Positions 12,060 to 44,436 of a stretch of DNA of 64,000 nucleotides are shown here, piece after piece. Numbering within the stretch: position 1 is the first letter of the stretch; the number at the start of each line of letters is the position of its first letter. The translations under genes and the position numbers were made by a program. This DNA is from Methanothrix sp. Lineage in GTDB: Archaea > Halobacteriota > Methanosarcinia > Methanotrichales > Methanotrichaceae. Location of the stretch: contig OY821645.1 in assembly GCA_963682135.1 (NCBI GenBank), forward strand, positions 608,001 through 672,000, read 5' to 3'. The notes beneath the pieces were generated by a model. It was not told where the DNA came from and made no database searches. It was given only the letters and a program-made list of their open reading frames with translations.

Positions 12060-15000
12060 TTAATTATTGCCGCTACCCGTCAGTTCCTCTTCGCTCTTCT
12101 CTATGACTCGTCTCAGTTCCTCGATTACTATGGGTTTGCTGATGTAATCATCCATGCCGGCTGCCAGGCACCTTTCCCGGTCGCCTTTGAGGGCGTAGGC
12201 AGTGATGGCTATAATCCTGGGCCCCTTGGGCCATAGCTTGCGGATCTCTTGAGCGGCCGCCAGGCCATCCATCTCCGGCATCTGTACATCCATGAGAATC
12301 ACATCATAGGGCTGCCGCTCTATTGCCTGCAAGACCTCTAGACCATTGCCGACCACATCTGCGCTGTAGCCGAGCCTCTTTAACATCTGAATAGCAACCA
12401 TCTGGTTGATGGTGTTGTCTTCTGCCAGCAAAATGCGCAGTGGTCTAAATCCTTTTTTGCTGGAGACCGCTCCGGTCTCCCTGAAGCCGGGATCGACGGG
12501 GATAGATATCCTTTCCGCCTCCTCGACCTGGATTGTAAAATGGAAAGTGGAGCCCAATCCCGGCTTGCTGACCACCCATATCTCACCTGCCATCAGCTCC
12601 ACCAGCCTGCGACTGATGGCCAGGCCCAGACCGGTTCCGCCGTACTTGCGTGTGGTAGTGGAATCTACCTGAGAGAAAGATTGAAACAGTCGGTCCATCT
12701 TTTCCTCAGGAATTCCAATGCCTGTATCGCTAATGGAAAAATGCAGCTCATATTGCTTGCCATCTGGGGCCACTATCGGCGTTCCTATCACTGAGATATC
12801 TATCGTCCCATCATGCGTGAATTTGACGGCATTGCCCAACAAGTTGACCAATACCTGACGAAGCCTGGTAACATCGCCTTTGAAGTATTCAGGAATCGAT
12901 TGATCAAGTTCATATTTCACAACCAGCCCCTTTTGATCCGCAGCCGCCTTCACCAGATCTACAGCCACAGCAATGCATTCTCGCAGATGGAAGGGCTGTC
13001 TCTCCAGCTCCATCTTGCCGCTCTCAATCTTGGAATAGTCCAGTATCTCATTTATAACCGAGAGCAAGGTATTGCCGGAGCTTCTTACAGTCTCTACATA
13101 ATCTCTCTCTTGTGCGGACAGGTCCGAGTTCAATAGCAAACCGGTAAGACCCAATACGGCATTGAGGGGCGTTCTGATCTCGTGACTCATATTGGCCAGG
13201 AAGTCTGATTTTGACCTGACTGCCGCCTCTGCGGCCTCTTTTGCCTCAATGAGACGATCTTCTGCCTGCTTTTTCTCTGTGATGTCGCGGATGGACTCTA
13301 TGGCCCCAAAGACGTTGCCGACAGAGTCATAGAGAACAGCAGCGCTGCCCAAGAGATAGACGATTCCGCCTTGCATGTTGGGCATGTAGGATTCTCCCCT
13401 GAGAACACTTCCTTTCTTTTCGATCTGGTTGTAACTGCTTTCGATATCTCTGTCAGCTTTTAAAATCAGATCGATGAGTATGGGCCGGCGAGTTCCATAA
13501 AAAGGTAATGCATACTCATAATTGCCCTTCCCGATCATATCTCTAGCCAAGATGCCGGTCATGGCCTCGATGGCCTTGTTCCAGGCTACCACTTTCCCAT
13601 CCCTATCGATGACAAAGGTAGCATCAGGCAAAAAATCAATGATGTCCATCAGGCGCTGCTCCGATTCCGCCAGGGACTCCTCGGCCCGCTTGCGCTCAGT
13701 AATATCGGTGAGTAAATTCAATGTGGCAGGTCTGCCTTGCCATTCAATCAAGGTCGCATTGATTTCCACCCACTTGACATTTCCTTTTGCAGTTAATACT
13801 CGAAAGGCATAGCTTGGCGGAGCGGCCTCATTTGCGATCCGTCGCCGGTAATTTTCAACCACCATGCTCCGATCATCCGGGTGGATGAACTCGGGAAATG
13901 GTCTATCAATGAGTTCCTGCTGCGAATCTACTTCTAACAGTCTAAGCATCATGGGATTGACAAACTTAAGCAGGCCATCTTGCGCGACGATTATTGATTC
14001 GTTAGCGTTGTTTATCAGCAGGCTATATTTTTTCTCGCTCTCGCGCAGCGCTTCCTCGGCCAGCTTGCGAGAAGTGATGTCCAAACCGACGGCTTGATAG
14101 CGGATGGGCTGCCCCTGCTCATTAAAAAATGCACGGTTGGTCCACTCTTGGTAGACCACTCTGCCGTCCGGCTTAAGATATCGTTGTTCGTGGATCTCAA
14201 TGGGATGCTGCGGTGTAAGCGTGCCCAGAATTTCTCTGACCTTTTTCTGGTCGGCAGGGGACAGGAATTCGAAGAAGTTTTTCCCGATCATATCCTCGGG
14301 TGCCTGGTCTTGCAATGCCGCCAGCGTCTTGTTCAGATAGGTCAGAGTGCCGTTGGGAAGAAACGCCGAAACAAAAACAGGCATGTCCTCAGACAACTGC
14401 CGGTAGCGCTCCTCGCTCACCCGCAATGCCTCCTCCGCCCTCTTGCGGTCGGTGATATCTCGAGTCACTCCCACGAGATACTCATTTCCTGACTTGTCTT
14501 TATAGGGCGTCTTCTTAACCAGGACGGTGCGAGTGATGCCAGGAGCGTAGGTGTTCGTCTCCTCGTTTACGTTCTCCACTCCTGTGGTAAATACCTCCTC
14601 GTCCTTCTGCCAGGAGACCCCAGCATCTTCCTGGGAGGGGAACAGCTCATAAGCGGTCCTGCCCAAAATATTCTCTCTTGAGCGATTGAAGAGTCTGCAA
14701 GAGGCATCATTGACCAGAATAATCCGGTGCTGCCTGTCCTTGACATGAATCGGATCACCGATGGAATTGATTATTTTGTCGAGGGAATCTCGAGTATCTG
14801 TCAGGGCCTGATTGGCTATTTCCAGTTCTGCAGTTCTCTGCAGGACCCTCTTCTCCAGTTCGTCATGGGCCCTTTTTAGCTGTTCATCGACCATCTTGCT
14901 CTTTGTGACATCCCGGGCAATGCCTACCAGAAACTGGTTGCCGACTTCATCTACATACAAGGTCTTCTTGGTGACCATGGTATGAACAATGCCCCGGCCA

Positions 15001-15419
15001 TCAGTCATCAGTTCTTCATTGACGCTCTCTCTTCCTGTAGTAAATACGGCTTCATCCATTTCCCAGAAAACGTCCGCCTGCTCTTTGGGGAAGAAATCAA
15101 AACAGGTCTTGCCGATCATTTCGTCAGGTCTTTGGCCGGCCAATTTGCTTTCGGCGGCGTTGATCAATATATACCGGTGCCGCCTATCTTTGACGAATAG
15201 AGGATCTGTAAACGAATTAAGAATCCTTTCCAGAAAGAGATGCTCCGATTTTTCTGCACTGCTCTCTTCTTCGAGAATTTTTTCTATGGCAATCAGATCT
15301 GTGGATACATCGGATAGCGTTTCGCCCAAGCATGCCGGAACGGATACGCTCTTGATCCTGAGATCATCTAATCGAGCGCGAAGCTGGCATATTCTGTGCA
15401 GTGCCTCATCGAATTGCAT
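12060..15419 (-). CDS. Cytoplasmic multi-PAS hybrid histidine kinase with receiver domain
   Basis: About five PAS/PAC repeats (RDITxRK), [29 protein letters not shown] (LAEDN, MDVQMP, KP). Confidence 0.95.
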
Positions 15420-15943
15420 TTCATGTCCTGGAAGCAGATAGCTTTGCTTAAGCGGTTCTACGAATCCAAAATCTTCATAGACCTAACCTCTCCAATTATG
15501 CATGTTTGTGATAAATAATTTTCCCCTAAATTGATATTTAACCCTGGTGCAACTGGAGGAACTCACACCAGTGATTCAGGCGAAATGGCACGGCTCCAAT
15601 GTGGTGAAGCTTACTTAAAAGGAGAGCTTGGGCAGCCCAAGATGCTCCTGCCAGGTGCCAGAGGCGCGCTGGACTGGATTGGGCGTATCGTATACGGCCT
15701 ACAGTTATACGGATGCTATTGGGGGAAATGGATCGGTTGAACTGGGATAGGGGGCTCATTTCTTCTTGCCTTTTTTATAAGCACACTCATATTATCGAAA
15801 TGCTTTTTAATTCGTGAGGTAGATTATGATATCGCCAAAAAGGAAGTCAGGGGGTACTTCCTAGAAGAGTTGAAAAAAGAAGGACGCCTGGAGGTTCTCT
15901 GAAGGATGGACCTTCAAAGAAGCTGGACGTATACCAATCTCAT

Positions 15944-17908
15944 TCATTTCTCGGCAGGCTGCTGCTGGCTTATGCAGTGCACCGTCCCCAGGCCGTGCAC
16001 CATCTCCCGGCAGTTGATGCCGACGACCCGCCTATCCGGGAAGGCCTCCTGGATGATTCTGAGTGCCACAGAATCGTTCCTGTGCCCGAAGACCGGCACC
16101 ATGACCACATCGTTGCCGATGTAGAAGTTGGCGTAGCTGGCGGGCAGCCGCCGCTCTGCGCCCACCTTTCCCGGCATGGGCAGCCTGATCACCTTGAGCG
16201 CGCAGCCGTCCTGGTCGGTCTCCCGGCAGAGCTGCTCGTAGTTCTGCTTGAGGACCGGGTAGTTTTCATCCTCTGCATCATCCTCGTAAGCGCAAAGCAC
16301 GGTGTTCGGGCCGACGAACCTGGCAATATCGTCCACATGCCCGTCCGTGTCGTCCCCGGATATGCCCTCTTTGAGCCAGATGACCTTGCTTATGCCCAGG
16401 TATTCCTTGAGATAACTCTCGATCTTCTCTTTGTTCAGGGCAGGGTTTCGGTTCTTATTGAGCAGGCACTGCTCCGTGGTCAGAACCGTCCCGCAGCCGT
16501 TCACATCGATGGAGCCGCCCTCCAGGACGATGCCAGGCCAGAAGTACTCCATCTTGAGGTCTTCGTTGATGAGTCCGCCAATTCTGCTGTCACCCATCAG
16601 CTCCGCATATTTCTCGCCCCAGGCGTTGAAGATCCAATTTACCGCGGCTACGCTCCTCTCCGGCTCATTCTTCCGGTTTACGACAAATGTGGGACCGTAG
16701 TCTCTGAACCACACATCCGCATAGCTTATCACGTGGAAGTGAACGCGGTGCAAATCGACCATTTCTTCTTTCAGCCGGTCCACGACATCGTTTTGCATCA
16801 TTTCGTCTTTGACCAGCAGGTTGACAATCTCGCTCTTGTGAATGGCTTTGATGATGGCCAGGTATGCCTTCTCCACCGCCTCGATCTCAGGGAAGCTGTC
16901 CAGATCGTAAGGCCAGGAGAGCCAGATGGCCTCGTGACGCTCCCACTCTGCCGGCATGTGGTAGCCCAAAGAGCGGGGCGTCTCTTGCCGACAGATCCCT
17001 ATCCCTTCCTTAGCCTTTCGATCCAGCCCTTCCTCATCCTGCACCATCTCGATGAGCGGCCAGTAGACATCAGGCCTGCGGTTGCGGAAAAAGCCCCAGC
17101 CCTTGCGCACCGCCTCATTCATGGCCAGATCCAGCTCCACCACCAGCGTCTCCTCCTCACTGCTGCCGGCCCGGGCCAGGATCTTGCCAAAGCAGTCGCA
17201 GACAAAGGAGCTGCCCCAAAAGATCAGGTCATCCTCGCAGCCCACCCTATTAGCCGCAGCCACGCAGACGCTATTGGCAATGGCGTGGCCTCTTTGCACT
17301 GTCTCCCAGGCATCATGCCAATCGCCCTCAGATGGGTCCTCCTCGCCCTTTATCCAGCCGATGGCCGTGGGATAGAAGATAATCTGCGCTCCGCTCAGCG
17401 CAGCAGCGCGCGCTGCTTCCGGGAACCACTGGTCATAGCAGATGAGTGCGGCAAATTTGGCATAGCGGGTATCGTAAACCCGGATCTCCTCTCCGGGAGT
17501 AAAATAGCTTTTCTCGTAAAAGAGAGGATCGTGAGGAATGTGCACTTTGCGATAGGTGGGAAGAAGGCTGCCGTCTGCATCAATCACAGCCACGGAGTTG
17601 TAGAATTCGCCTTCGTCATGCTCGAAGATGGGCACTATTATCACTATCTGCAGCTCTTCTGCCAGCGTGGAAAAGGCCTGCGTGGAAGGGCCAGGGATGG
17701 TCTCAGCCAGAGCAGCGGCATCTTCGCCATCCCACTGCGGAAAGTAGCGCGTGCGGAAAAGCTCCTGCAGGCAGACGATCCGGGCTCCTTTGCTTGCTGC
17801 CTCTCTTACCTTTTCTACAGTTCTCATCAGATTTAGATAGAGGTCTTCGCTAACATTGGTTTGAATCAATGCGATGCTGACTCTGGACGGAGGTTTATCT
17901 ACCGGCAT
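15944..17908 (-). CDS. Fusion of N-carbamoylputrescine amidase (nitrilase family) and agmatine deiminase
   Basis: CLQELF, YRKVHIP, ICYDQWFPE; then MPAEWERH, WFRDYGP, EGGSIDVNG, DDTDGHVD, GTVHCISQQQP. Confidence 0.92.
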   Translation of the reverse strand: MPVDKPPSRVSIALIQTNVSEDLYLNLMRTVEKVREAASKGARIVCLQELFRTRYFPQWDGEDAAALAETIPGPSTQAFSTLAEELQIVIIVPIFEHDEGEFYNSVAVIDADGSLLPTYRKVHIPHDPLFYEKSYFTPGEEIRVYDTRYAKFAALICYDQWFPEAARAAALSGAQIIFYPTAIGWIKGEEDPSEGDWHDAWETVQRGHAIANSVCVAAANRVGCEDDLIFWGSSFVCDCFGKILARAGSSEEETLVVELDLAMNEAVRKGWGFFRNRRPDVYWPLIEMVQDEEGLDRKAKEGIGICRQETPRSLGYHMPAEWERHEAIWLSWPYDLDSFPEIEAVEKAYLAIIKAIHKSEIVNLLVKDEMMQNDVVDRLKEEMVDLHRVHFHVISYADVWFRDYGPTFVVNRKNEPERSVAAVNWIFNAWGEKYAELMGDSRIGGLINEDLKMEYFWPGIVLEGGSIDVNGCGTVLTTEQCLLNKNRNPALNKEKIESYLKEYLGISKVIWLKEGISGDDTDGHVDDIARFVGPNTVLCAYEDDAEDENYPVLKQNYEQLCRETDQDGCALKVIRLPMPGKVGAERRLPASYANFYIGNDVVMVPVFGHRNDSVALRIIQEAFPDRRVVGINCREMVHGLGTVHCISQQQPAEK

Positions 17909-18548
17909 ATTCTTCCCCAATTGCATTGCTATTGAGCGCGCTGGTTTAACTAGATGGCGGGAATTTCAATTGATGCAGCCGCATGTATTCGATCACATCC
18001 AGCGGGAACCTGGCATAATTCCGGCGGCTCTCTGGCGGTTCCTATTGGGCGGTGGAGGGTGGAGTATGCAGCTGACCTGGAGGTTACGAGGGCCGCGGCG
18101 GGGGCGCTGGACGTCTTTGCGACCCTGTCCATGGCGGCCAGATCGGAGGTGAATAAGGAGGCCACGACGAAGATGGGCATCAGCTCCGGGGTTTCTATGA
18201 GGGGATCCGTAAGCCATTGCGGCTTCCTGTTGGATCTGGCAGCCAAAGCGACATACTATCTGAACTGCAAGACGGGTCAGGCGTCCATGACGGCGATCGC
18301 CTTCAAGGGAAGCGAGCAGAAGACGAAGGTGAGGGCGGTGTGCGCTTATTCATGATGGATGGTCGGATCGAATCTCTGCAGTACATCTAGCTTTACGGTG
18401 GCGGGTTCCACCGGGTTTTTACTTCTGGAGCGCGGAGGGTCACGAATATCCAGACCTTCAGTTTGGTAATGAAGTGAACCATCGCACGTTTTTTTCTGCT
18501 CTCTTAAATCGACAAGACATCACTTCTTTCTAAATTGAGGGCGGCAGC

Positions 18549-18949
18549 GCCTCCGCCGGCTCCCGGCGCGACGGATCGATAGCAAGCTTCTTTCCGTTCC
18601 TCTTGAGCACCGCCAAAAAGCTCGCATAATCATGCTCGTAGTAGCCCTGTAGCTTTGTCTTGGGCGTGAGATCCTCCACATTGGCTCCCAGGCAGCTCTC
18701 CAGCCAGCCAAGGAAGCCCTTGATATCCTGGCTAGCTTCTGCCAGGTTCATCTCCAGCATCCTCTCTGCCAGGAAGGCCTGGTGAATCGTGCACTACATC
18801 CGATTTCTCCTGTTCGGTGATGAAATTGCCAGCCTTGTCTTTGGGCAGGCAGGCATCCACCAGGGCCCCAATCTCGGCGTGCTTGCCATCGGCATAGAGC
18901 TGCATCAGCTCCGCCCCCAGGCGGGCGCGCTCGGGCGCGGGAGTGGTGA
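18549..18949 (-). pseudogene. Degenerate direct-repeat copy of the constant post-TRD 3' segment of the type IIG RM gene (cf. 19874..20270)
   Basis: Near-identical DNA (atctcggcgtgcttgccatcggcatagagctgcatcagctccgcccccaggcgggcgcgctcgggcgcggg) and peptide VEDLTPKTKLQGYYEHDY; frameshifted and truncated. Confidence 0.9.
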
Positions 18950-18973
18950 CAACTAGAAATATCGCTGTTAAAA

Positions 18974-19479
18974 TTATGAAAAGATCTCATCCACATTTTT
19001 GGGATGCATCACTACGAGCGGAAAAGCATCTGGAATTCTGTATTTCCTCAGGGTTTTATCTGTTGTTATGAGATAATCGAGATCATAAGCCATAGCATAG
19101 CCCAAATGAACCAAATCCGTTGGGCTCAGCCTGCTATCACGAACAGATTCATCCATATAGAGATTATAGCAAGCTACGGCCACAGCCTTGTTCGGGCGAA
19201 GAACGACTATATCTAATCCTTGCCAAAATCCAATCAGCTTATAGAGATCTTCAATACAGAATTTGCCCTCTTGTTCGCCGTTTTGCCCTCCTTGAAGGCA
19301 CAAGCTGACGATTTCCGCAAATACCGACACGGGAATACAGAGCTCTACGCGGGGGTGTCCGCTCGCGCGGCTCAAAAATTTTTTATTTCTCGGGGGAAAA
19401 TGTCCTTCTTTCTGAGCTCATCGCGATTGTGGTCAATGACAGCGTATAAGAAAATATCTGAATCTACAGCGATGCGCAT
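18974..19479 (-). CDS. PIN-domain (VapC-like) toxin split by a -1 frameshift at 19378-19384
   Basis: MRIAVDSDIF in one frame, stopping at 19372; SVFAEI, LSPTDLVHL, LITTDK in the -1 frame. Confidence 0.8.
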
Positions 19480-19484
19480 TGTTT

Positions 19485-19640
19485 TTAGCCACCAAAAGCG
19501 CTCTGAATTTTTCTTACCATTGCTTCCTCTTCTTCTTCGGTTAAGGCCCAAACCACTCTACCGAATAAATCCGTGGCTCCTCCGTGTGGCAGAGGGTCCT
19601 TCTCGGAGTCAAAGAGTTGATCAAATGGAATTTTTGGCAT
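19485..19640 (-). CDS. Putative antitoxin (51 aa, acidic)
   Basis: MPKIPFDQLFDSEKDPLPHGGATDLFGRVVWALTEEEEEAMVRKIQSAFGG ends 5 nt before the PIN ATG. Confidence 0.55.
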   Translation of the reverse strand: MPKIPFDQLFDSEKDPLPHGGATDLFGRVVWALTEEEEEAMVRKIQSAFGG

Positions 19641-19725
19641 TTTAAAGCACATCCACGATTGTCCTTGATCTTGGCATCATTCCCGTTATTATACTTTTGG
19701 GCAGTTTGCCCGTCGTGAATTATTA

Positions 19726-22700
19726 TTATGCTTTTCCTTCCACAATCCGTTTCTCTTCCTCCGTCAATCCGTACAGCCTGTACACGACCGCATCGATCAG
19801 CTCATCCGTCTGCTTTATCCGCTCCCTCAAGGGCGCAAGCTTGCCCATCGACCCCTCGAACTCGGCTTTGAGGGCCTCCGCCGGCTCGCGTCTGGCCGGA
19901 TCGATGGCCAGTTTCTTGCTGTTCTTCTTGAGCACCGCCAAAAAGCTCTCATAATCGTGCTCGTAGTAGCCCTGCAGCTTTGTCTTGGGCGTGAGGTCCT
20001 CTACCTTTGCTCCCAGGTAGCTCTCCAACCAGCTTAGGAAGTCTTTGATCTCTTTCTGCTTCTGTTTGTTCATCTCCAACATCTTCTCCGCCAGGTGGGC
20101 CAGAAGATCGTGCACCACATCCGAGCGCTCCTGTTCGGCGATGAAATTGCCCTCCCCGTCTTTGGGCAGGCAGGCCTCCACGGCAGCCAGGATCTCGGCG
20201 TGCTTGCCATCGGCATAGAGCTGCATCAGCTCCGCCCCCAGGCGGGCGCGCTCGGGCGCGGGGGTGGTGAAGGATATGCGGCGGATGGGGAGCTCAGAAA
20301 CAAGAGGGGCTCTGAAATTTATCCCACCATCCATACTCAGGTTCCCATATACCTCCTTGATAAAAAATGTCATTAATTTGGAATTTAGTATCGTTAATAT
20401 ACAGGATAGATTATAATTTGTAGACGATCCCTCAAAAATAATAGCAGTAGATTTGCCTGCAATATATTCTCCATTTTTATCCAAGAATGTTTCAAAGTGC
20501 CTTATTCCAGAAACAATTATTTTTTTGGTGGATGATTGCATGAACCTCTTTGGAAAGCTTTTTTGAAAATCGCTTTTTTTAACGGCTGGCATATTGTAAT
20601 TACGTTTTAAATATGTGGTTGGTTCTACCCCCCACAACGAAGTATACCTGTCAATTGTACCAGTTACTATAAACTTAAAGTCCTCTGAATCTTCTTGTTT
20701 TGTATCTCTTAATAGTGCGGGTAATTCATAAGCTTCTGAAACTGTTGAAGCTTCCTTAACAATAAAAATTTCAGATAGCATTTGACTCGCTTCTTGCACT
20801 TTGATTAGCATGATGGGATCTTTAGAAAATATGATCCCCCAATTTTTTGTAGCATAAAAATTTTTTGTATTAATATAGTTGTTTAATATTTTCAAATAGT
20901 TTTTATCAAAGATTTCGATATTAAGTTCTTGATGAGTCTGTTTGTCCATGAAAACAACGACTGGAAATATTGAGGCCTCTTCGAAAACTTTAGCTTTAGA
21001 ATAATCGGATATCCAATACAAATTCTCCTTAGAAAACTCCCTCAAAGATAATCCGTATCCAGCAGCGATCCACTTATTAGGCGTGATTAGTGATGCTTTT
21101 CCTTTGGTATTAATCAGTTGCAAGGCCAATTCCCAAAATGGTATGTATAAATCCCAATTTCCACTAGCAGTCTTAAACCGCTTTGATATTACATCTCTTT
21201 CAGCTGGTGAATTTTTCACCATATTTTCAGAATCAACATAGGGTGGGTTCCCGATAACCACATCGAATCCGGGATTTTCCCCGGCAAACGCTTCAGGAAA
21301 CTCCATCCTCCAGTGGAAGAATCGCTTCTCTTTCGCCAGCACCTGGGCTCTTGTGAACCAATCTTGTTCCCTCAGGTAGGACAAGTCCGGAAACTTCTCC
21401 GGGTTCAGGTGGTTTTGCAGCTCATAGTAATCGTCATCTTTCACTTTGTTCCCAAAGAACGAGGATAGCCAGACATTAGAAAGATCGTTTAGCCTTCGGG
21501 AGAGCTCTGATTCCTTGATCTGACGGAACTGCTCTTCTTTCCACTTTACCGTCTGCAAGTTATCGTCCGGCAGAGCTGCCATGAGTCTGTACCTACCGAG
21601 GAGTTTATCCGTGTGACTTTTCAGCCCAAAGCTCCAGATCTGCGTCTGCTCCGCCTGCCCGCCGGGCAGCACAGCGAGTTTTTCTAGCTCCGCTCCGATG
21701 AGGCTGTTTCCGCATCTCAAGTGATGGTCCAGGAAGCTCAGCGGCTTGTTGGAGGCAACTGTGGTAAGCCACAACGATAATTTGGCCAGCTCCACAGCCA
21801 TGGGGTTGAGATCCACGCCGTAGATACAATTTCTCACCACCTCGCGCCTAGCCCAATGAATGTCGTTCTCAGCTATCTCTTCCGATTCCAGCTCCTCGTG
21901 TCTGGCTATCTCTTTGGCATGAATAATCTCCCTGGCGATGTAATCAGTAGCCTCAACTAGGAAATGACCGGACCCCATGGCCGGATCGAGGACCTTCAGG
22001 GAAAGCAGCTTCTTGAGAAGATCCTTGCGCAGGTCCTCAGACCAGATGGCTTCCTCCATCATCGGATTTATCAATGGCGCAAGTGTGTTTTTCACCATGT
22101 GCTTCACGATATATTCCGGTGTGTAGAAGGAGCCGGTGGCCTTTCTCTCCCCCTTGTCCGTCACCAAATACAGGCCACCCGCCTCAACGCTGTCTGTGAA
22201 TTTCTTGCCGGCCTTGCTCGCCGGCAACCAGACCTCTTTGCCCTTTTCTTTGACGGCCACCATGGGCTCCCCGGCCAGGTGCAGCTTGTACTCAAGAATG
22301 CCTTCATAGATCGATCCCAGGTGTCGAATGTCCAGGGACGAATAATCTACGAAAACCATTTTTCCTTCGCCTGGGGAGCGTGCCAGGAGGTCAATGGCCC
22401 CTGCCAGATATGAGTTTCCTATCTTCTTTTGAGAGAGAAACGGATTTTTCAAGGGATCAAAGAGCCCGCCATTGTATGCCGGGATGTAGAACTCTTCCTT
22501 GGGATAGCCGAAGGCTTCACTACCATCGTTTATGAGGCGGAACAGGTCCTTGAGTCCCTCCCAGTAAGTAGATCTGACCGCCAGCATGCTCTCGCCCTGA
22601 TCCATCTTTTCTGAGATTTCTTCCTTCAGCTTGCGTAGACTCATTTCCCTGTAGTGCTTGTTGTCGGTGTTGAGAAGCTTCCTGCTCTCGGCATAGAAGA

Positions 22701-23628
22701 TGAAAAGCATTCGATAGAGCAGGCGCATGGAGTTATCCTGCACATCTCTTATGTCTTCCAACGCATGGGACAACGAGTTCGATTGCTCTGCAAAAAAACC
22801 TTCAGCCAGGACCTTCATTGCTTTATAGACATTCTCTTGCAGGTCATTTCCAACCTTCTGGGCGTATGCTGCGCTCTCCTCCCTTACTCTATCCAGGAAA
22901 GATGAACCGAGCGGAACCTGGGGAAAGGCTTCCAGCCGGAAGAAGAGATAAAAATACTTGAAAAGAGTGATATCGCCGCTCTCCTCGATCCGATTGATCA
23001 GCTCAGGGAGGTTTACCTCATAGTAACAGTCCATCTTGACGCTGGTGTCTTCATGGTAAAGCCTCCACATTCTCCCATTGGTGAGAATCGCCCACTTCGC
23101 AGGGGTTGCTCGCAGGTAGTTGTCAATCTGATAGCTTGGATTGGCCATGTCTCTCTGAGCTTTCCCCTGGCGGCTCTTGTCCAGAGCTACATTCCAGGCT
23201 TTTGCATCCCCTACGACAACGGCCTTTTTGTAGAAACCTTCTGAGTCTTTCTTGTGTGAATAAGCCTCATCGAGCGTCTTTCTATCTGGAAAGAAGGCAT
23301 AGTCGGGTTTCAGAGGGTCATGATGCACGCTTTCTTGAACCCCGTAATGATGACCGAGTTTGTCAAAGGCCGGCCTGATCAAATTGTGCTCCAGATCCGC
23401 CTCAACGTACCTTTCGAAATTTTTCCCTTTCCGCTCGAAGATCTCTTTTATTTGAGAGAATGTTTCACGGAGACGGGCATCATCATCATCCCATTCTGGA
23501 ACCTTCTGGATCATATTCTCTAAGTAATGATTTGAAAAAAGGCCGCTGTTATTGAACGCATTTATAGTCGTTGTTGTCTCCGTGGTTGCCGCCAATTGCC
23601 TATCCTCCGAGTAAGGATCATTCATCAT
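19726..23628 (-). CDS. Type IIG restriction-modification enzyme (Eco57I-like; fused endonuclease, N6-adenine methyltransferase and TRD)
   Basis: PD..DAK nuclease motif, ILTNG.WRLY, GSIYEGIL, GSFYTP, DPAMGSGHFL, GNPPY, C-terminal IDAVVYRLYGLTEEE. Confidence 0.93.
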   Translation of the reverse strand: MMNDPYSEDRQLAATTETTTTINAFNNSGLFSNHYLENMIQKVPEWDDDDARLRETFSQIKEIFERKGKNFERYVEADLEHNLIRPAFDKLGHHYGVQESVHHDPLKPDYAFFPDRKTLDEAYSHKKDSEGFYKKAVVVGDAKAWNVALDKSRQGKAQRDMANPSYQIDNYLRATPAKWAILTNGRMWRLYHEDTSVKMDCYYEVNLPELINRIEESGDITLFKYFYLFFRLEAFPQVPLGSSFLDRVREESAAYAQKVGNDLQENVYKAMKVLAEGFFAEQSNSLSHALEDIRDVQDNSMRLLYRMLFIFYAESRKLLNTDNKHYREMSLRKLKEEISEKMDQGESMLAVRSTYWEGLKDLFRLINDGSEAFGYPKEEFYIPAYNGGLFDPLKNPFLSQKKIGNSYLAGAIDLLARSPGEGKMVFVDYSSLDIRHLGSIYEGILEYKLHLAGEPMVAVKEKGKEVWLPASKAGKKFTDSVEAGGLYLVTDKGERKATGSFYTPEYIVKHMVKNTLAPLINPMMEEAIWSEDLRKDLLKKLLSLKVLDPAMGSGHFLVEATDYIAREIIHAKEIARHEELESEEIAENDIHWARREVVRNCIYGVDLNPMAVELAKLSLWLTTVASNKPLSFLDHHLRCGNSLIGAELEKLAVLPGGQAEQTQIWSFGLKSHTDKLLGRYRLMAALPDDNLQTVKWKEEQFRQIKESELSRRLNDLSNVWLSSFFGNKVKDDDYYELQNHLNPEKFPDLSYLREQDWFTRAQVLAKEKRFFHWRMEFPEAFAGENPGFDVVIGNPPYVDSENMVKNSPAERDVISKRFKTASGNWDLYIPFWELALQLINTKGKASLITPNKWIAAGYGLSLREFSKENLYWISDYSKAKVFEEASIFPVVVFMDKQTHQELNIEIFDKNYLKILNNYINTKNFYATKNWGIIFSKDPIMLIKVQEASQMLSEIFIVKEASTVSEAYELPALLRDTKQEDSEDFKFIVTGTIDRYTSLWGVEPTTYLKRNYNMPAVKKSDFQKSFPKRFMQSSTKKIIVSGIRHFETFLDKNGEYIAGKSTAIIFEGSSTNYNLSCILTILNSKLMTFFIKEVYGNLSMDGGINFRAPLVSELPIRRISFTTPAPERARLGAELMQLYADGKHAEILAAVEACLPKDGEGNFIAEQERSDVVHDLLAHLAEKMLEMNKQKQKEIKDFLSWLESYLGAKVEDLTPKTKLQGYYEHDYESFLAVLKKNSKKLAIDPARREPAEALKAEFEGSMGKLAPLRERIKQTDELIDAVVYRLYGLTEEEKRIVEGKA

Positions 23629-24237
23629 ATCCAAAAGCTTTGCGGGAAGCAATTGGATTGCGTGGCCTGGATATCATGGCGCGCGGCAGGCCGGCAGCCG
23701 GGAGAGATCCGGGGGCACAGGGACAGGCGGCAGATATCCGGGTGCCATGCAGGCCGAAGGAGATGCCTTTCAGGGGGCGGAAGATATTGGACGCGCTGGT
23801 CTTTTTAAGGCGATTTTCTCGCGGCTACAGGAAGGCGAATTGTACTTTCTGGCGGAAACTCACTGGGCTGACCGATATCGCCAGTCAAGCGGTGAAGTCC
23901 AGGCCGCAGGCGGTCTGCGGGTCCTGGGGATCGCACTCGTTGGAGCGTTGCCTGGTAGTAGAGAGCCCGCAAGCTGTCACACTTCTTGCTCGAAGATGAC
24001 GCCCAGATCTTGGGTGACTATGGGACGCCTTGGGGTCCGCGGCCAGGGCTCGCGTGGCGTGCTCACTGGAGCGCAGCAGGTACGCCCGTCCGCTGGCAGC
24101 CGAGCCCCAGGGCCATGCAGGCGTCAAGCGGCTGAGAGCGAGCTATCGGCTGCGGTTTAGCAGCTCAATCACCGGTCTAGCTAGCCAAGGTCTACGGTGC
24201 ATAGGCCCGGGTTGTAAAGGAGGTCGGGATTCTCGGG

Positions 24238-37981: not shown

Positions 37982-39122
37982 GAGGATTCCTATTTACTTC
38001 GGTTTAAGAGATTGTTTTCAGAAATTCATGCATAATTCGCTTCACGAGGAGGCAATTTCGCTAAATACTTCATTCGTCAGCCCCCTTTTCTGATCATTCT
38101 TCGACAGCGTCCGCTAGGCTCAAATGATTCCGGCTTTTTTCAGAGTGCAGAGCTGATATAAATTGAAAGCAAAGGCGGTAGCCATCATTTTTATATGAAC
38201 CCTCTTTATCGTTGTAACCAACACCCAGCCCGAGTTAAAAATTCTCTTGATCACTGCATGGGGGCGCTCACCTGGGGATCTTAGCTTGCTGATCAATCGA
38301 TTTCGCTCCTTATCAAGTTCCTCCAGTGGCTTATCGGTTGTCCTGCGCTTCATTGTAAAATCTATTCCCCTGGCCTTTGCCCCAAAATACCCCCTGTCTC
38401 TTAACACCACTTCATCCTCAATTGAGAGATCAACCTGACTATCATGCAACGAAGCCGTGGAAGTCTCGATTTCACGAATCAGGCAATAATCAATATCGGT
38501 TTTTTGATGCAGTTTGTAGCCAAAATGGAATTCATTGCCCTTCTTGGCTATTGTCCCATCCCTACTGCGGCGGGTCTTAGCATCTTTTCCACGTGGTTTC
38601 TTGAACTTTCCGGGATCTGCTTCAATGAACGTGGCATCTTGGATCGTTCCATGTTTGACCTGTAAACCCATAGCATCCAATTGCCTCTGAAGTTCTGCCC
38701 AGACAACTTCATCTTTTCCAGCATTGGCCATGCGCTCTCTAAATAGCCATATCGTCCTAGAATCGGGGAACATATCAGGGAAACCAAGAAATGACATAAA
38801 CGAGATGCGGTCAGCCATTTGTCGCTCAATTTCCAAATCGCTCAAGCCGTACCATTGTTGGAGTATCAGGATCTTGAACATCAAAATTACATCGCAGTTG
38901 GGCCTTCCACCCTTTTCGCTCTTATTGTCATACATCTCATCCAGTATCCGGCGAATGGGTAACCAGTCGATCAAATTCGATATCTGCGATAACCGAGATT
39001 TACCTTGCGTCTCGCTAAGCCCTCGCAATACCCAAGTGGTAAAAGAATTCATAACATATAATGGTGTTAATAGTATATAAACATTTCTATATTAAGAATT
39101 GGGCTGGTTTATAGGAATCCTC
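37982..39122 (-). mobile_element. IS5-family insertion sequence
   Basis: TIRs GAGGATTCCTAT / ATAGGAATCCTC; 4-bp TSD GAAT at 37978-37981 and 39123-39126. Confidence 0.92.
38120..39052 (-). CDS. IS5-family transposase, intact
   Basis: LQQWYGLSD, QDATFI, FGYKLH, DRGY, R..GERP..VIK. Confidence 0.93.
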   Translation of the reverse strand: MNSFTTWVLRGLSETQGKSRLSQISNLIDWLPIRRILDEMYDNKSEKGGRPNCDVILMFKILILQQWYGLSDLEIERQMADRISFMSFLGFPDMFPDSRTIWLFRERMANAGKDEVVWAELQRQLDAMGLQVKHGTIQDATFIEADPGKFKKPRGKDAKTRRSRDGTIAKKGNEFHFGYKLHQKTDIDYCLIREIETSTASLHDSQVDLSIEDEVVLRDRGYFGAKARGIDFTMKRRTTDKPLEELDKERNRLISKLRSPGERPHAVIKRIFNSGWVLVTTIKRVHIKMMATAFAFNLYQLCTLKKAGII

Positions 39123-40573
39123 GAATAGATCAATAGGGAAAGAGCCATGATCATAGACAAGGCTTCAATCCGTTCTTCTTTCTTGAGATAGACTTCCGCT
39201 ACCCGAAAGCTTTTGTCCTTTAAGAATCGGAAGCCTTTCTCGACAGCGTTCTGGCCTTTGTAGTATTTTAGCATCAATTCGCCATCAAGTGCTTTATCGT
39301 TGCTTGCCAGGATGAACCTGCCCAGTCTCGCTCTCTCGTTCGCGATGCTTTCCTCATTTAGCACGACTTCGGCTTCAATACGATAGCCTTTTTCAAGTTC
39401 CTCATCTTTCTTCGGACGCCCTTTTTTAGAGCCTTTGCGTTTGCTGAATGCATTAGTTTTCAAATTTTCAAGGATGAAATGAGGATTCTCCAATAGCCAT
39501 CGATCAGCCGCCTTTCTAGCATCGGCTTCGCACGCGAAGAGCACTCTTCCCAGTTTTTTGAACGATTTTCTTGTTTCAGTGAACTCTTTTTCAATCCTCT
39601 TATCAAAGGTCTTTGCCTTGCTGGTATGCATTTCCCTGGAATCGACCACAACCCACTTTTGATCTATTCCGCCATAGTTTATATATGTCTCAAATATGCT
39701 GTAACGATCATCTGAGCATGTCTTCATCTCAAGATCGCGTTTTAGAAAATCCTTGACTTCGCCAACAGTTGAAGGGACATGAGTAATCCATAAGGTCTCG
39801 TCACCTAGGAGGCGGATATTCTCTGAACTGAAAAAAGCGCTATCTGCGGCAAAGTAACCTTTTTCAGAAAAGTCTAGGTTGGACTTGAACGCTTGAATTG
39901 TCTCGATGATAGTTTTCTTATCTGATTTATTTCCGGAATGAGCCTGGACAAAAAGAGGGATGCCACATTGGTTGGTTACCATGCTGATAACGAATTGTTT
40001 TAGATCCCATCGACCGTCCTTGGGATGACCGAGAGTTATTTCCATAGCAGGCAGACAATCCGGTCCTTCGTAATCCCCATGGACGCTGAAACTTGTAGTA
40101 TCGACATGATAGATCTGAGTGCCAATCGATAGTTTCCGAACGCACTTCAAGGCTATCTGATTGAAAAGCATGGTCGAGCCGTATCGATTGATTCTATCAA
40201 GAGTCCTGCCAACAGCATCTTCATTAAAATCTGTTGAAACAACTCCAGGATGAAAAAGGCGTTCAAGCGCAAGATTCTCGAAATAGCTTGGAAATATGTA
40301 CAGCCTTCGCTCAACGAAACCCAAACCGTTGATTATCAAGGCCTTTATTATTTCAGAATGGCTCAGCTTGCATTCGCGAGTCTTCGGAATCAATCCATCA
40401 ATCAATTCAGAAATGCCCAAAGCATCGAAGATTGCTGCAACTAATCCAAGATGGTCAAGCGACAAAGTTGATAATTTCATTTTGGCCCCTTCGAATCCCT
40501 TTGGGGCTAAGAAATCATGGCAGCATAAAAATGTTTCACAAAATTAAGGATACCTGCGGGATGTGGGATCAAT

Positions 40574-40828
40574 CTATTCTTGGCTGATTATCCCAAAGCC
40601 ATCGAGTACCACGAGCAGGCGCTGGCCATTGATCGTGAGATCGGGGACAGAAGGGTCGAGGCCTTAGCATCCTGGAACCTGGGCATGGAATATGAGATAG
40701 CAGGCAATCTCAAGCGGGCTGGCGAAATGATGCAGATACGCGTGGATTACGAAAGAGAGATCGGCCATCCGGATGCTGAGAATGATGCTGCTCACCTGGA
40801 AGCCCTCCTGGACAAATTGAAGAGCTGA
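40574..40828 (+). pseudogene. 3' fragment of the IS-interrupted TPR gene
   Basis: ADYPKAIEYHEQALAIDREIGDRRVE; same repeat family as 41851..44436. Confidence 0.8.
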
Positions 40829-40982
40829 TCCTGAGGCACATACGATTTCCTGCCCTCGGCCAGGAAATTGCAGGATGCGTTTCGAGCAGGCAATCGCTGC
40901 CGGCGGGAGCCCGGCCCGCTTGCAGCCGCACGCCCATGCGGACGTGTTCACGAGCGGGGGTGGAGAACGAGATGCGACGGAT
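40822..40982 (-). pseudogene. Relic of the type IIG post-TRD constant segment
   Basis: IRRISFSTPAREHVRMG and NFLAEGRKSYVPQDQL versus IRRISFTTPAPERARLG and NFIAEQERSDVVHDLL in the RM protein. Confidence 0.75.
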
Positions 40983-40988
40983 TTAGCG

Positions 40989-41340
40989 CTACTTGCAAGC
41001 CATTTCAAGGAGGCGATTCCTGACAGGTTCCAGATCGTGAAGCAGATAATAGACCTCTATTCCAAATCTTCTGGCACTAATTGCCTGAAATTTATCATTG
41101 GAAATTATGATTGCTTTGTCTGCAATTGCGCAGGCTATGTAGAATGCATCTGATGCCCTTGATCCAGTCTCGAGAGCAATGGAAAATGCGTCATCATAGA
41201 TTTTGGCGGTCTCAATAAATCAGGTTCAATTATTGTCAGGTCATTTTCTTCAATTATCGAAAGCACTTCTTCAGCGCATCGAGTCCTTTCGGAATCATAT
41301 TCGAAGAGAAGATCGATAAAGACCAAAAGCATCTATTACT
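40989..41340 (-). pseudogene. PIN-domain toxin pseudogene (deleted and frameshifted)
   Basis: VFIDLLFEY..TIIEPDL, then in another frame RASDAFYIACA..IISNDKFQ..stop at 40989. Confidence 0.75.
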
Positions 41341-41341
41341 A

Positions 41342-41539
41342 TCATCTTCGCTCCTCAACGAACTCCTGCATAACGTCCTTGTCCACTTTGATCCTGAACT
41401 TTCTGGCAGCTTCTGTGATTTTTCCCGCCTTGAGGACAACGAATGCCTTAGTTCCCTCTTGCAGCTTTATTTCCTGCAGGGGCTTAAAGACGCCATTTTC
41501 ATAAACCACTCTTACCTTATCAGCTACAGAATCGGACAT
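41342..41539 (-). CDS. Antitoxin, AF2212/DUF104-like
   Basis: VVYENGVFKPL..LQEG motif; ends FVEERR next to the PIN gene. Confidence 0.88.
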   Translation of the reverse strand: MSDSVADKVRVVYENGVFKPLQEIKLQEGTKAFVVLKAGKITEAARKFRIKVDKDVMQEFVEERR

Positions 41540-41620
41540 ATGAAACCTCCAGATAATGGCAGTCAGAATAGAAAAGGCCCGTCTAGGATAAATATTGTTT
41601 GAAGCAGTCCGGTTCCATCT

Positions 41621-41727
41621 GCCTTCAGTTCCACCATTTTAATCGCTTCCTCAGCCAGCTCGCCAGGACCGCACGCCTCGGCATCGATCATCTGCTCCGT
41701 CTGCTCGGTCTTCTCCTGCCCAGCGCA
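41621..41727 (-). pseudogene. Relic of the extreme 3' end of a type IIG RM gene
   Basis: gcatcgatcatctgctccgtctgct versus gcatcgatcagctcatccgtctgct at ~19790; QTEQMIDA..LAEEAIKMVELKA versus QTDELIDA..LTEEEKRIVEGKA. Confidence 0.7.
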
Positions 41728-41850: not shown

Positions 41851-44436
41851 ATGGGCTATTATGTCTTCATCAGCTATTCTCATAAGGATTCCCAGTATAT
41901 TTTAAAGCTTGCCGACTACCTGCGTAATTTCAGAATCTCAATATGGATAGATAATCGGAATCTCGATGGTGGGCAGATATGGAATGAAGAGATAAAAAAG
42001 GCTTTGCAGGAATGCAATTACTTCCTGATAGCTCTTTCCACGTATTCAGCGAAATCAGAAGAGGTCAAAAAAGAGCTTGATGCAGCTCTCTCATCCGGGA
42101 GAGCCATAGTCCCAATAATGATTGAGGACTGCAATATCCCTGAAGAGATCAGGTCCCTGCATTGCATCGATTTTAAAGAGAGAGACCTAAATGATTCTGT
42201 GGCAATCAATTCGCTGCTGAGAGCATTGAACCTTGTCACCAATCCAGGCGATCGGCCTTTCCAGATAGACCGTCCTCCTCGAGATTTTACAGGTCGCACA
42301 ATAGAGATCGAAGAAATGCTCTCCCAGTTCGAGAGGGGAATTACCATCTCTGGATTTCATGGCATGGGCGGCGTAGGAAAGACCGCGCTGGCTTATGTTT
42401 TGGCCGAGAAGTTGAGAGATAACTATCCTGACGGCCAGATACTGGTAAAGATGGAGGGTACAAGCCAAAATCCATTAAATCCGATCGCAGCGATGGAGAA
42501 AATAATTCATGCCTATGAGCCAATGGCCAGCCTGCCCGGAAACGATGAAGAAATTACAGCTAGATTTGAAAGGCTAATGAGAGAAAAGCGCGCTCTGATC
42601 CTGCTGGACAATGCTAAAAATAGCGAGCAAGTAAAGCCTCTGCTCGATAAGTTGCCAGGTACCTGCGCAGTGATAATAACATCTCGCCATATCTTTGCTT
42701 TGCCAGGAATGAAGAGAAAGGATTTGAATGTTCTGAAGCCGGAAGAAGCCACAGAACTCTTGCTGAGGATTTGTGGATATGATCTTGCCGACCCCAATTT
42801 TGCAGAGAAAGAAGAGATATGCAGGGAGATCGCCAGCCTCTGCGGCCATCTCCCCCTGGCCCTGCGCCTGGCAGGCACATTTCTGGTCAACACCAGAGAT
42901 CTGAGCCCTGAGGATTACGCCGGGAGCCTTAAGGATGAGAGAAGCAGGCTGGAGCATATCGATAAAGGCAGCAAGAGTAGCAGAGAGATCAGCGTGCAGG
43001 CAAGCCTGCTTCTGTCTTACTCCCGCCTGCCTGCTGAAGCTGCCAGGGTCTTCCGCCTCCTCTCCGTCTTTCCCCTTGACTTCGATTCCGGGGCGGAGGA
43101 GGCTGTTTGCCAGGATAAGGATCACGAGCAGCTCAGCGAGCTATTGCGCTGGAACTTGGTCGACTACCAGGAGGAGAACAAACGCTACCGGTTACATGAC
43201 CTGGTGAGGATCTTTGCTTCCGCCAAGCTCTTGGAGGTAGATGGCGAGGATGCGAGAGACGAGGCCAGACAGAGACATGCTGAGCGCTACAGAGATGTGC
43301 TCTCTTCTGCTACTGAGATCTATAAAAATGGAAATGCTCTGGCGGGATTGAATATATTCGACCTGGAAAGGATGAATATCGAGTCTGCCTGGGCCTGGGC
43401 AAAAGAGAATCTAGCCAAAAGCAATGCTGCAGCCACCATATGCAGCTCTTTTCTCAACTGGCCATATTTGCTTGATCTGCGCCATCATCCGAGAGAGCGC
43501 ATTTTGTGGATGGAGACGGCTCTCTCTGCAGCTCGGCGGCTGAATGATCGAAGCATGGAAGGAGTGCATCTGGGCAACCTGGGCATCGCATACAAAAACC
43601 TGGGCGACGCCCGCAAGGCCATCGAATACTACGAGCAGCATCTCGTCATCGCCCGCGAGATTGGGGACCGAAGGGGCGAGGGTAATGCGCTGGGCAACCT
43701 GGGCTTGGCCTACGCCGCTCTGGGCGACTCCCGCCAGGCCATCGAGTACTACGAGCAGCATCTCGTCATCGCCCGCGAGATTGGGGACCGAAGGGGCGAG
43801 GGTAATGCGCTGGGCAACCTGGGCCTGGCCTACGCCGCTCTGGGCGACGCTCGCCATGCCATCGAGTACTACGAGCAGGCGCTGGCCATTTTACGCGAGA
43901 TCGGGGACAGAAGGGGCGAGGGTGCTGATCTGGGCAACCTGGGCAGCGCATACTACGCGCTGGACGACGCCCGCCAGGCCATCGAGTACTACGAGCAGGC
44001 TCTGGCCATTTTACGCGAGATCGGAGACCGAAGGGGTGAGGGTGCTGGTCTGGGCAACCTGGGCTTGGCCTATGCCGCTTTGGGCGACGCCCGCAAGGCC
44101 ATCGAGTATTACGAGCAGGCTCTGGCCATCGCCCGCGAGATCGGGGACAGAAGGGGCGAGGGTGCTGATCTGGGCTGCCTGGGCAGCGCTTTTTACAGAT
44201 TAGATGATATCGATAAATCCCAGGATTACTACCAGCAGCAACTCAAGATTGCACAGGAGATAGGCGATCGCAATGGCGAAGCCAATGCCCTCTGGGGTCA
44301 GGCCATCTGCCTGAAAAAGAAAAACGATCCCGTACAAGCCATTGCAAAAACGGAAAGCGCATTGAGGATCTTCGAGCAGATCGAGTCGCCCAGTGCATCA
44401 ACCATGCGTGAATTGCTGGCCGAGTGGAAGAAGTAG
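41851..44436 (+). CDS. TIR - NB-ARC (STAND NTPase) - TPR protein, NLR-like
   Basis: VFISYSHKD TIR domain; FTGR, GMGGVGKT, LILLDN, IITSR, GHLPLAL, YRLHDLVR; 40-aa TPR repeats. Confidence 0.93.
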   Translation: MGYYVFISYSHKDSQYILKLADYLRNFRISIWIDNRNLDGGQIWNEEIKKALQECNYFLIALSTYSAKSEEVKKELDAALSSGRAIVPIMIEDCNIPEEIRSLHCIDFKERDLNDSVAINSLLRALNLVTNPGDRPFQIDRPPRDFTGRTIEIEEMLSQFERGITISGFHGMGGVGKTALAYVLAEKLRDNYPDGQILVKMEGTSQNPLNPIAAMEKIIHAYEPMASLPGNDEEITARFERLMREKRALILLDNAKNSEQVKPLLDKLPGTCAVIITSRHIFALPGMKRKDLNVLKPEEATELLLRICGYDLADPNFAEKEEICREIASLCGHLPLALRLAGTFLVNTRDLSPEDYAGSLKDERSRLEHIDKGSKSSREISVQASLLLSYSRLPAEAARVFRLLSVFPLDFDSGAEEAVCQDKDHEQLSELLRWNLVDYQEENKRYRLHDLVRIFASAKLLEVDGEDARDEARQRHAERYRDVLSSATEIYKNGNALAGLNIFDLERMNIESAWAWAKENLAKSNAAATICSSFLNWPYLLDLRHHPRERILWMETALSAARRLNDRSMEGVHLGNLGIAYKNLGDARKAIEYYEQHLVIAREIGDRRGEGNALGNLGLAYAALGDSRQAIEYYEQHLVIAREIGDRRGEGNALGNLGLAYAALGDARHAIEYYEQALAILREIGDRRGEGADLGNLGSAYYALDDARQAIEYYEQALAILREIGDRRGEGAGLGNLGLAYAALGDARKAIEYYEQALAIAREIGDRRGEGADLGCLGSAFYRLDDIDKSQDYYQQQLKIAQEIGDRNGEANALWGQAICLKKKNDPVQAIAKTESALRIFEQIESPSASTMRELLAEWKK
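43561..44190 (+). repeat. Tandem 120-bp intragenic repeats (five full units plus a partial one) encoding TPRs
   Basis: Alternate 60-nt lines align almost exactly (atcgagtactacgagcag..gggcgag). Confidence 0.95.

Follow-up and report, generated by a model that had tools for sequence, protein, structure and literature searches.

Recurrent cassettes of toxin-antitoxin and other genes between direct copies of the constant 3′ end of a type IIG-like restriction-modification gene in Methanothrix

Around Rhs and CdiA genes, a full-length polymorphic gene is accompanied by co-directional partial copies that share a conserved segment, with small protective genes lying between them, and module swapping is thought to go by homologous recombination at the conserved segment. 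Chromosomal superintegrons are rich in toxin-antitoxin (TA) cassettes. Here we describe a 64,000-nucleotide (nt) stretch of Methanothrix sp. (GenBank assembly GCA_963682135.1, contig OY821645.1, positions 608,001 to 672,000; hereafter the window, numbered from its first letter), in which a TA cassette lies between direct copies of the constant 3′ end, or tail, of a type IIG-like restriction-modification (RM) gene. Among published rearrangements, the class closest to it is insertion with long target duplication at RM loci (Furuta, Abe and Kobayashi, 2010; PMC2853133), for which that paper cites an earlier, original description in Helicobacter pylori. As characterized by Furuta and colleagues, it shares with our locus a short unit free of mobility genes, placed between long direct repeats (>30 bp to hundreds) of resident sequence and linked to an RM system. 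The orphan toxin/immunity arrays behind Rhs and CdiA genes (e.g., PMC3967940) resemble our arrays in having a full-length gene and then co-directional partial copies with small protective genes between them. Integrons and integrase-less attC clusters, archaeal ones included (passages of PMC9668308), resemble them in their one-directional arrays of short one- or two-gene cassettes with a repeated element between, in their TA enrichment and in being shared across taxa. Finally, type I RM loci that are phase-variable and contain silent partial hsdS genes, among them the pneumococcal tvr locus with its TA pair (PMC6265443), also combine partial specificity-gene copies beside an active RM gene, repeat-driven rearrangement and an embedded TA pair. 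A full-text literature search, with supplements outside its reach, found no description of such tail-repeat arrays.

A sequence-only reading of the window had proposed a TA cassette between direct copies of the RM tail, and blastn, a tail profile searched with nhmmer and the junction sequence all bear this out. The RM gene (1308 aa) occupies 19726..23652 on the minus strand, and its tail, 187 aa plus the stop codon, occupies 19726..20290 (nhmmer match 19732-20289, E 5.5e-176). Downstream of the gene, on the same strand, come a 51-aa antitoxin-like open reading frame (ORF) at 19485..19640, a PIN gene in two frames and then a second tail copy at 18542..18951, which matches profile positions 18-423 of 561, is frameshifted and lacks the last ~140 nt of the tail. 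In blastn the two tail copies match over 404 nt at 84.9% identity (E 5.9e-123), with 18546-18727 aligning to 19871-20052 at 86% and 18786-18949 to 20107-20270 at 89%; the 4-nt offset between the two blocks indicates the frameshift in the orphan copy. The PIN stop codon lies at 18974-18976 and tail homology resumes 18-25 nt further on, at TCACCAC.CCCGCGCCCGAG, which encodes TTPAPER; a restart about 25 nt past this stop, almost exactly where the recognition domain ends, had been noted from the letters. Direct repeats of 404-560 bp flank the cargo, and RM genes with a single tail exist elsewhere (e.g., locus L015; loci and genomes of our sets carry L and G numbers), as in insertion with long target duplication. 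In the class described in PMC2853133, however, the RM unit is what is inserted and the duplicated target is arbitrary, whereas here TA or defence cargo is inserted and the duplicated piece is in every case the tail of the RM gene itself. Also unlike that class, the process has been repeated to give arrays with as many as 7 copies, and the cassettes are shared between species.

The domain architecture of the RM gene predicts a type IIG enzyme, with methyltransferase and target recognition domain (TRD) in one polypeptide: an MmeI_N-like N-terminal part is followed by a gamma-class N6-adenine methyltransferase, a TaqI_C-type recognition domain and the conserved tail. The Pfam Eco57I match (3.3e-40) exceeds its cut-off, and is joined by MmeI_Mtase (3.8e-13), N6_Mtase, MmeI_N (6.9e-5) and a borderline TaqI_C match (9.3e-6, residues 1023-1103; 26.3 bits against a cut-off of 26.5). 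The translation contains NPPY and GSGHF motifs, and among PDB sequences CamA and M.TaqI were matched over the methyltransferase region. The putative nuclease part is sub-threshold (MmeI_N 23.7 and MmeI_hel 19.6 bits, against cut-offs of 27 bits), and the PglX models of bacteriophage exclusion (BREX) systems score far under their cut-offs on this protein.

The TRD (20291..21150, minus strand) is AT-rich and cannot be aligned among 16 homologous genes. The alignment of these genes turns from unalignable to highly conserved exactly at LPIRRISFTTPAPER (LPIRRISF), which marks the TRD/tail boundary. GC content is 0.50 in the RM body, 0.333 in the TRD, 0.589 in the tail (last 565 nt), 0.437 in the cargo and 0.601 in the orphan tail, so that both TRD and cargo are indeed AT-richer than the repeats, as had been noted from the letters alone. 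The window tail is 55-89% identical at the amino acid level to the tails of 15 other RM genes. Among 12 full RM genes, 48 of the 66 pairs gave no TRD alignment of at least 100 aa even though the tails are 56-90% identical; one pair from different genera has TRDs that are 61% identical and bodies that are just 47% identical. Searches of the tail protein against Pfam, NCBIfam and PDB sequences gave no match. An AlphaFold model of TRD plus tail had a mean predicted local distance difference test score (pLDDT) of 66.9 and a predicted template modelling score of 0.70; the TRD part was poor, and the tail was modelled as helices (block pLDDT 85-93), two of them long (281-317 and 359-397) and forming an apparent hairpin. 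A Foldseek search of this model against the PDB returned nothing at E<=0.001, the best weak rows being TaqI-like methyltransferases and generic coiled coils.

The sequence-only reading had also suggested that TRDs are captured as cassettes. This could not be substantiated: at the examined loci no recognisable TRD sequence precedes any orphan tail, from which it follows that TRDs are neither stored nor captured in this form. The TRD diversity is ordinary allelic mosaicism, of the kind that passages of PMC2853133 report for type IIG genes, and not TRD storage in the array. In this respect the arrays depart from two of the systems introduced above. Orphans in Rhs and contact-dependent growth inhibition (CDI) loci carry a variable toxin tip and so form a reservoir of alternative variable modules, whereas the orphans here consist of the constant tail only and the variable part is unrelated cargo. 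The partial genes of the tvr locus store alternative TRDs that are shuffled by a locus-encoded recombinase at inverted repeats; the arrays here store no TRD, their repeats are direct and they encode no recombinase.

Tails of this kind are widespread in the genus, and many of them are arrayed. The 187-aa tail was matched in 47 of 59 Methanothrix genomes; on many contigs an open frame of about 1300 aa is followed by several co-directional matches spaced at 1.2-2.3 kb. In a phylum-wide sample of 401 genomes, full tails and arrays occurred in two further genera of the same family and single RM-attached tails (44-56% identity) in two other families; elsewhere just the last ~35 residues matched. Using a tail profile built from 41 full tails, we found 101 tail pieces in 38 loci, namely 36 fetched loci and two in the window: 29 loci had at least two, 17 at least three and the largest seven. 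The fetched loci had been chosen from tail matches, so this set is biased towards arrays. In a less selected set, made by scanning one genome per species and taking the 70 best loci with a 4-kb flank on each side, 35 of the 70 loci still had at least two copies (17 with two, 11 with three, 5 with four and 2 with five). Most of the record titles in this set are Methanothrix, Methanotrichaceae or Methanocrinis, one Methanoperedens locus has two copies, and bacterial-titled loci at ~50% identity carry one copy. Tails all point in the same direction within each of the first 16 loci, and small reverse pieces were seen in one locus of the 70-locus set. Some arrays have no RM gene (L001, L003, a second locus in the window and a second tail family at 2.48 Mb of the same genome), and some RM genes have a single tail with no second copy (L015, L034, L031 and L032).

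This recurrence bears on another account of the window, in which the 3′ end of the RM gene was duplicated locally in tandem, just once, and then decayed. Only two copies of the 560-bp tail were found by blastn in the 3.04-Mb genome, the second of them truncated and frameshifted, as that account would have it. The same architecture and the same border nevertheless occur in dozens of genomes of three genera with different cargo, and the window's own cassette, which we call type K, is present in two other species at 94-98% identity. The recurrent arrays with a common border leave no room for an absence of further tail copies or for random breakpoints, and they make a one-off duplication extremely improbable.

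Several observations on the distribution stand apart. At L090:4651-5875, unlike in the usual arrays with cargo, a full tail is followed by four tandem copies that comprise only its 3′ half (residues ~113-187) and are spaced ~330 nt apart. Tails 79-91% identical to those of Methanotrichaceae were found on short contigs titled as Anaerolineae, Minisyncoccia and Bacteroidales bins (L050, L071 and L102), which looks like mis-binning more than transfer. The second family, at about 2476600-2485000 on the minus strand of the same genome (L037:2600-11000), consists of seven copies of a ~190-bp short RM-type tail that also starts at IRxIxF (IRTIAFSDP...) and ends ...YELYGLTEEEIRIVEDAG, with antitoxin+PIN, PIN_2, ParE-like, HicA-like and HEPN modules between the copies. 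Further copies lie near 1.109 Mb and at 1.159-1.163 Mb, and none of this family is joined to a long ORF.

Homology to the 560-bp tail starts at the equivalent of 20247-20297 in nearly all copies and reaches 19719-19753 in complete ones, so that the repeat unit takes in the whole segment between the TRD/tail boundary and the stop codon. At the 5′ end, the start falls within ~45 nt of PIRRISF/TTPAPER; it varies between cassette types and is identical within a type, and the cargo gene upstream of an orphan tail ends 7-35 nt before it. At the 3′ end, homology stops at ...YRLYGLTEEEIxIVEG; beyond this point, each downstream cargo comes with its own final three to six tail codons, stop and leader. 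Between the tails lie 63 segments of 164-3573 nt, with a median of 727 nt. When cargo segments were clustered by 70% reciprocal coverage, 14 recurrent cassette types emerged, with the same types occurring in different positions and genomes. Domains recognised in cargo ORFs of the RM strand include an AF2212-like antitoxin with PIN, PIN-like proteins of 155-166 aa, MazF/PemK, ParE/YafQ-like, HicA, HicB, MNT with HepT, a TIR-like protein and DUF365; a further cargo is a GNAT acetyltransferase of 176-251 aa with a small ORF upstream. Several other types consist of two small ORFs each in which no domain was recognised. One cassette encodes a dCTP-deaminase-like protein of 233-245 aa (NCBIfam dCTP_deam, 7.3e-33) and an unannotated partner of 147-152 aa, and might act in defence by nucleotide depletion. 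This cassette is present in 7 loci, at array position 1, 2 or 3 (L007:9049-10190, L009:7855-8998, L010:1765-2906, L011:613-1754, L016:6461-7611, L003:2587-3765 and L024:7287-8466), and begins ~170 nt past the stop of the preceding tail (L007, L009, L010 and L011; at 173 nt in L016).

Most tails outside RM genes are decayed. Among the 101 tail pieces, 26 are attached, continuing a long open frame, and 75 are orphans, of which 43 are truncated and 32 full length; frameshifts or stops interrupt 21 of the latter. With 64 of 75 truncated or broken, the orphans look like scars rather than working sites. The same figures make it very unlikely that orphan tails are working genes for small helical proteins that partner the RM enzyme or the TA pairs. 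Such a role would suit the 11 full-length orphans free of frameshifts and stops, several open frames of 184-226 aa and the autonomous helical hairpin predicted for the tail. Three of the 11 intact copies are, however, the first tails of RM genes that are themselves interrupted, and the open frames, which begin a short way before the tail, lack a start codon at the border and have their first ATG at an internal MQLY.

The cargo has moved between species. As a housekeeping baseline we used the nucleotide identity of neighbouring genes at 12060-17926. Cassette K (780 nt) is 98.2% identical over 758 nt to its copy in genome G047, against 81-88% for the flanking tails and 83-84% for the housekeeping genes; the corresponding values for genome G045 are 94.2%, 83-84% and 71-75%. 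Similarly, between loci the dCTP-deaminase cassette is 90-96.5% identical against 75-88% for the tails, and the MazF cassette 97-98% against 83-90%. Loci L007 and L008 are colinear save for the third cargo, which is the dCTP-deaminase cassette in one and an unrelated 3.3-kb segment in the other, with homologous tails on either side; strain-variable cargo between tail copies, which the sequence-only reading had proposed to look for, is therefore present. These nucleotide comparisons show that the movement of cassettes from species to species is more recent than the divergence of the tails and of the neighbouring genes, and they uphold the proposal that downstream defence and TA cargo is exchanged as cassettes. 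In a tree of 53 full-length tails, clustering is mainly by locus (L017, L003, L027, L005, L011, L001, L004, L012 and L008), which is indicative of local duplication or gene conversion, and a few tail pairs group by downstream cargo (K, E, B and M).

With moderate confidence, we favour the interpretation that these are cassette arrays built through homology-driven exchange on the RM tail, in which orphan tails are scars and addictive cargo resists deletion. Homology between tail copies would allow cassettes to be inserted, lost, exchanged for others and duplicated. The processes would be gene conversion and homologous recombination, unequal or ectopic, acting both inside a genome and with the DNA of relatives. 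Resident tails would be homogenised by gene conversion, and orphan tails would be left as by-products of the exchange events. Addiction modules may dominate the cargo because, between direct repeats, only a segment whose loss is penalised would escape deletion. The role of the tail as a recombination anchor, which had been suggested from the window alone, accords with the co-directional arrays and the exchanged cargo; that the tail is the substrate itself we infer, and the drop in identity at the borders does not speak for it.

Alternatively, an orphan tail may be a passive scar, left when an incoming allele replaced the 3′ part of an RM gene (TRD, tail and downstream sequence), with cargo that hitch-hikes and has no mobility of its own as a cassette, comparable to the orphan modules behind Rhs/CDI toxin genes. 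The decay of the orphans, the hypervariable TRDs of otherwise similar genes, the pairing of some tails with their downstream cargo in the tree and the last tail codons that go with that cargo are all in line with such displacement. We nonetheless consider it quite unlikely. The same cargo is found at positions 1, 2 and 3 and beside different neighbours, its identity exceeds that of the tails on both sides, and one cargo differs between homologous tails in otherwise colinear arrays. Moreover, there are arrays without any RM gene, and no orphan tail has a TRD remnant ahead of it.

Several points weigh against the homology-driven interpretation that we favour. In sliding windows, between-species identity is lost over ~25-50 nt at the cassette borders and shows no gradient into the tails, while crossovers within the tails would be expected to bring neighbouring tail sequence with them in many cases. 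Conversion by resident tails could erase such co-transferred tracts, but to invoke it requires a further assumption. The first cargo|tail junction at the TRD border cannot be a product of homologous recombination, which also does not explain the TRD-less 5′ ends of the orphans. Several cassette types (e.g., A, C, D, I, J, M and N) have no recognised domain, and the cargo scan covered ORFs on the RM strand only. Lastly, no excised circle or deletion joint was seen in assembled contigs of public sequencing runs, which cannot show rare forms. Five such runs held half or more of the sampled words of the window (77-98%), and four were compared, all as assembled contigs; these span 18912-20221 without differences and then break at the repeat. 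The runs may include the source sample, so this agreement is not independent support. A wetland metagenome contained a joint from 19935 to 18627 with 16 other letters between, which comes from a relative.

One explanation for the sharp borders was discarded. Long runs of perfect identity at the tail ends could have placed them there, but among 1347 inter-locus pairs of the 53 full tails, runs of at least 20 nt were commoner at profile positions 200-340. Perfect runs do not favour the tail ends, and the cassette borders are therefore not predicted by plain homologous recombination. Together with the sharp fall in identity, this failure keeps alive the idea of a precise step at the tail ends, in which a recombinase encoded elsewhere, of Xer type or unknown, acts on short sites there. 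A system of this kind would excise and insert units of cargo, or of tail plus cargo, precisely, and would be integron-like in mechanism as well as architecture. It agrees with the way in which identity borders coincide sharply with both cassette edges, and with junctions that are invariant within a cassette type. In our own reading of the sequences, in addition, the tail start bears a conserved GC-rich motif that contains short repeats, both inverted and direct, and the tail ends in the region of a GTACAG.CTGTAC palindrome. Archaeal integrons, as covered in passages of PMC9668308, are also mostly integrase-less attC clusters.

The search for a recombinase lends this idea little weight. Among 117 flanking ORFs of at least 170 aa at 35 fetched loci, no integrase or resolvase was found at E<=1e-8; there was one DDE transposase, and the flanks consist of housekeeping genes that represent several different chromosomal contexts. 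The genome itself has four tyrosine recombinase (PF00589) matches, at 912, 1635 and 2807 kb, at least 280 kb from the array at 626-632 kb, and three of the four contain stops. No Rfam family was detected in 15000-45000, a search that applied no attC-specific model and so left short sites at the tail ends outside its reach. The orphan 5′ border shifts over ~45 nt from one cassette type to another, what is repeated is 560 bp of coding sequence and not a short hairpin site, and the clustering of tails by locus is what homology-driven conversion predicts. On balance a site-specific system appears unlikely. Neither it nor homology-driven exchange accounts for the first cargo|tail junction of each type.

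The earlier description of an integron-like array built from the RM gene itself stands as regards the cassette arrays on the RM tail. Unlike in integrons, no intI tyrosine recombinase was found beside the arrays. Whereas integrons have an imperfect hairpin of 60-140 nt, the repeat here is the 560-bp (or 190-bp) coding end of a gene; and unlike integron cassettes, those described here have their own ~170-nt leaders and borders that vary by ~45 nt between types. A palindromic GC-rich motif (CTTCGCGGCTTCGCG ... CGCGAAGCCGCGAAG) was noticed in inter-tail segments of L030 and L001 (after K cargo) and of L006, L007, L008 and L011. It was set aside as a cassette site, having 13 dispersed copies in the window's own genome and none in the window arrays, and may be a small dispersed repeat.

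We tentatively put forward a broader and more doubtful possibility, in which the RM 3′ coding end serves as the portable address of an integrase-free cassette platform, an archaeal functional analogue of the integron. If this were true, selfish TA and defence cassettes flanked by RM tails could enter any genome with a related RM gene, the arrays would be active sites of gene exchange that build defence islands, at least two tail families (560 bp and ~190 bp) would work in this way in one genome, and a precise step at the tail ends, of a kind yet to be discovered, would account for the sharp borders. Independently of that proposal, the arrays bear on how defence islands assemble and on why TA modules cluster by RM systems. 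In them a unit of assembly is visible: copies of the constant end of one gene, as many as seven, bound the cargo, which passes between species in a methanogen family that is dominant in the environment. Should the tail be a recombination handle, defence and addiction genes would spread without mobile-element machinery, through homology alone, and the TA bias would have a testable reason, namely that cargo between direct repeats survives only if it is addictive. Tail arrays also explain many "partial methyltransferase" pseudogenes in the annotation of Methanotrichaceae genomes.

The window array itself is minimal, with one cassette and one truncated orphan tail at the RM-proximal end of a tail-repeat cassette array. 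The first gene of cassette K, the 51-aa ORF, has no Pfam or NCBIfam match and resembles no known antitoxin family in these searches. It stops 6 nt ahead of the PIN start codon, in the same position as a 52-aa ORF upstream of an unsplit PIN paralogue elsewhere in the genome, and against an 83%-identical copy its codons show 12 synonymous and 6 non-synonymous changes, which suggests purifying selection. The PIN gene is split. Its N-terminal part (MRIAVDSDIFLY..., beginning MRIAVDSD) runs in the 0 frame from 19479 down to a TGA (19372..19479, minus strand), and its C-terminal part is in the -1 frame (18974..19378, minus strand; 44% identity over 125 aa to the unsplit paralogue). The split gene has no direct Pfam match, and its identification as a PIN-domain toxin comes through this 165-aa paralogue, which matches Pfam PIN (PF01850) at 6.4e-7. 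Just 5′ of the 0-frame TGA is an A_AAA_AAT heptamer (19378..19384, minus strand). The heptamer and both PIN frames are kept in four cassette copies, one as low as 83% identical, and there are 12 synonymous and 2 non-synonymous changes in the N part, counted against the L004 copy, and 22 and 13 in the C part. Conservation of the split across copies, with changes mostly synonymous on both sides of it, points to a gene read through a programmed -1 frameshift, a candidate case in an archaeal toxin gene; a pseudogene was rejected because the split itself is conserved. The same heptamer is also used in a Sulfolobus fucosidase gene. In the third inter-tail segment of L022, a copy of cassette K has lost its PIN gene between two GATGAG microhomologies and kept the antitoxin ORF.

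At 40.8-41.7 kb the window holds a second locus, for which the same gene order had been proposed (40822-41727). Tail-profile matches confirm the order, although the evidence is weaker than at the main locus, and we regard it as a heavily decayed, RM-less remnant of an array. All of its parts are on the minus strand. A remnant of the tail 3′ end lies at 41629..41718 (profile positions 463-552, E 1.6e-4; 88% over 25 nt to 19790-19814), and a remnant of the tail 5′ start (IRRISFSTPAREHV...) at 40823..40983 (profile positions 3-188, E 2e-7; 13 of 20 aa by tblastn). Between them are an AF2212-like antitoxin of cassette type F at 41342..41539 (PF01954, 2.5e-15) and, by our own reading of the sequence, a PIN toxin pseudogene with several frameshifts at 41000..41345. 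The latter is colinear with the intact PIN of type F cassettes, and its longest fragment has no Pfam match. The cassette as a whole is 73-74% identical to type F (AF2212+PIN) cassettes inside the arrays of L007, L019 and L008. The neighbours are two insertion sequence transposase genes, at 38120-39052 and 39092-40480 on the minus strand (DUF772/DDE_Tnp_1 and DUF4277/DDE_Tnp_1), and a gene for an 861-aa TIR-NB-ARC-TPR protein at 41851-44436 on the plus strand, the TPR part of which (43448-44304) is a repeat of 120-nt period in 6 copies. A stray TPR gene end on the plus strand (40580-40828) abuts the decayed tail remnant and matches the TPR repeats of the 861-aa protein at 76-87%.

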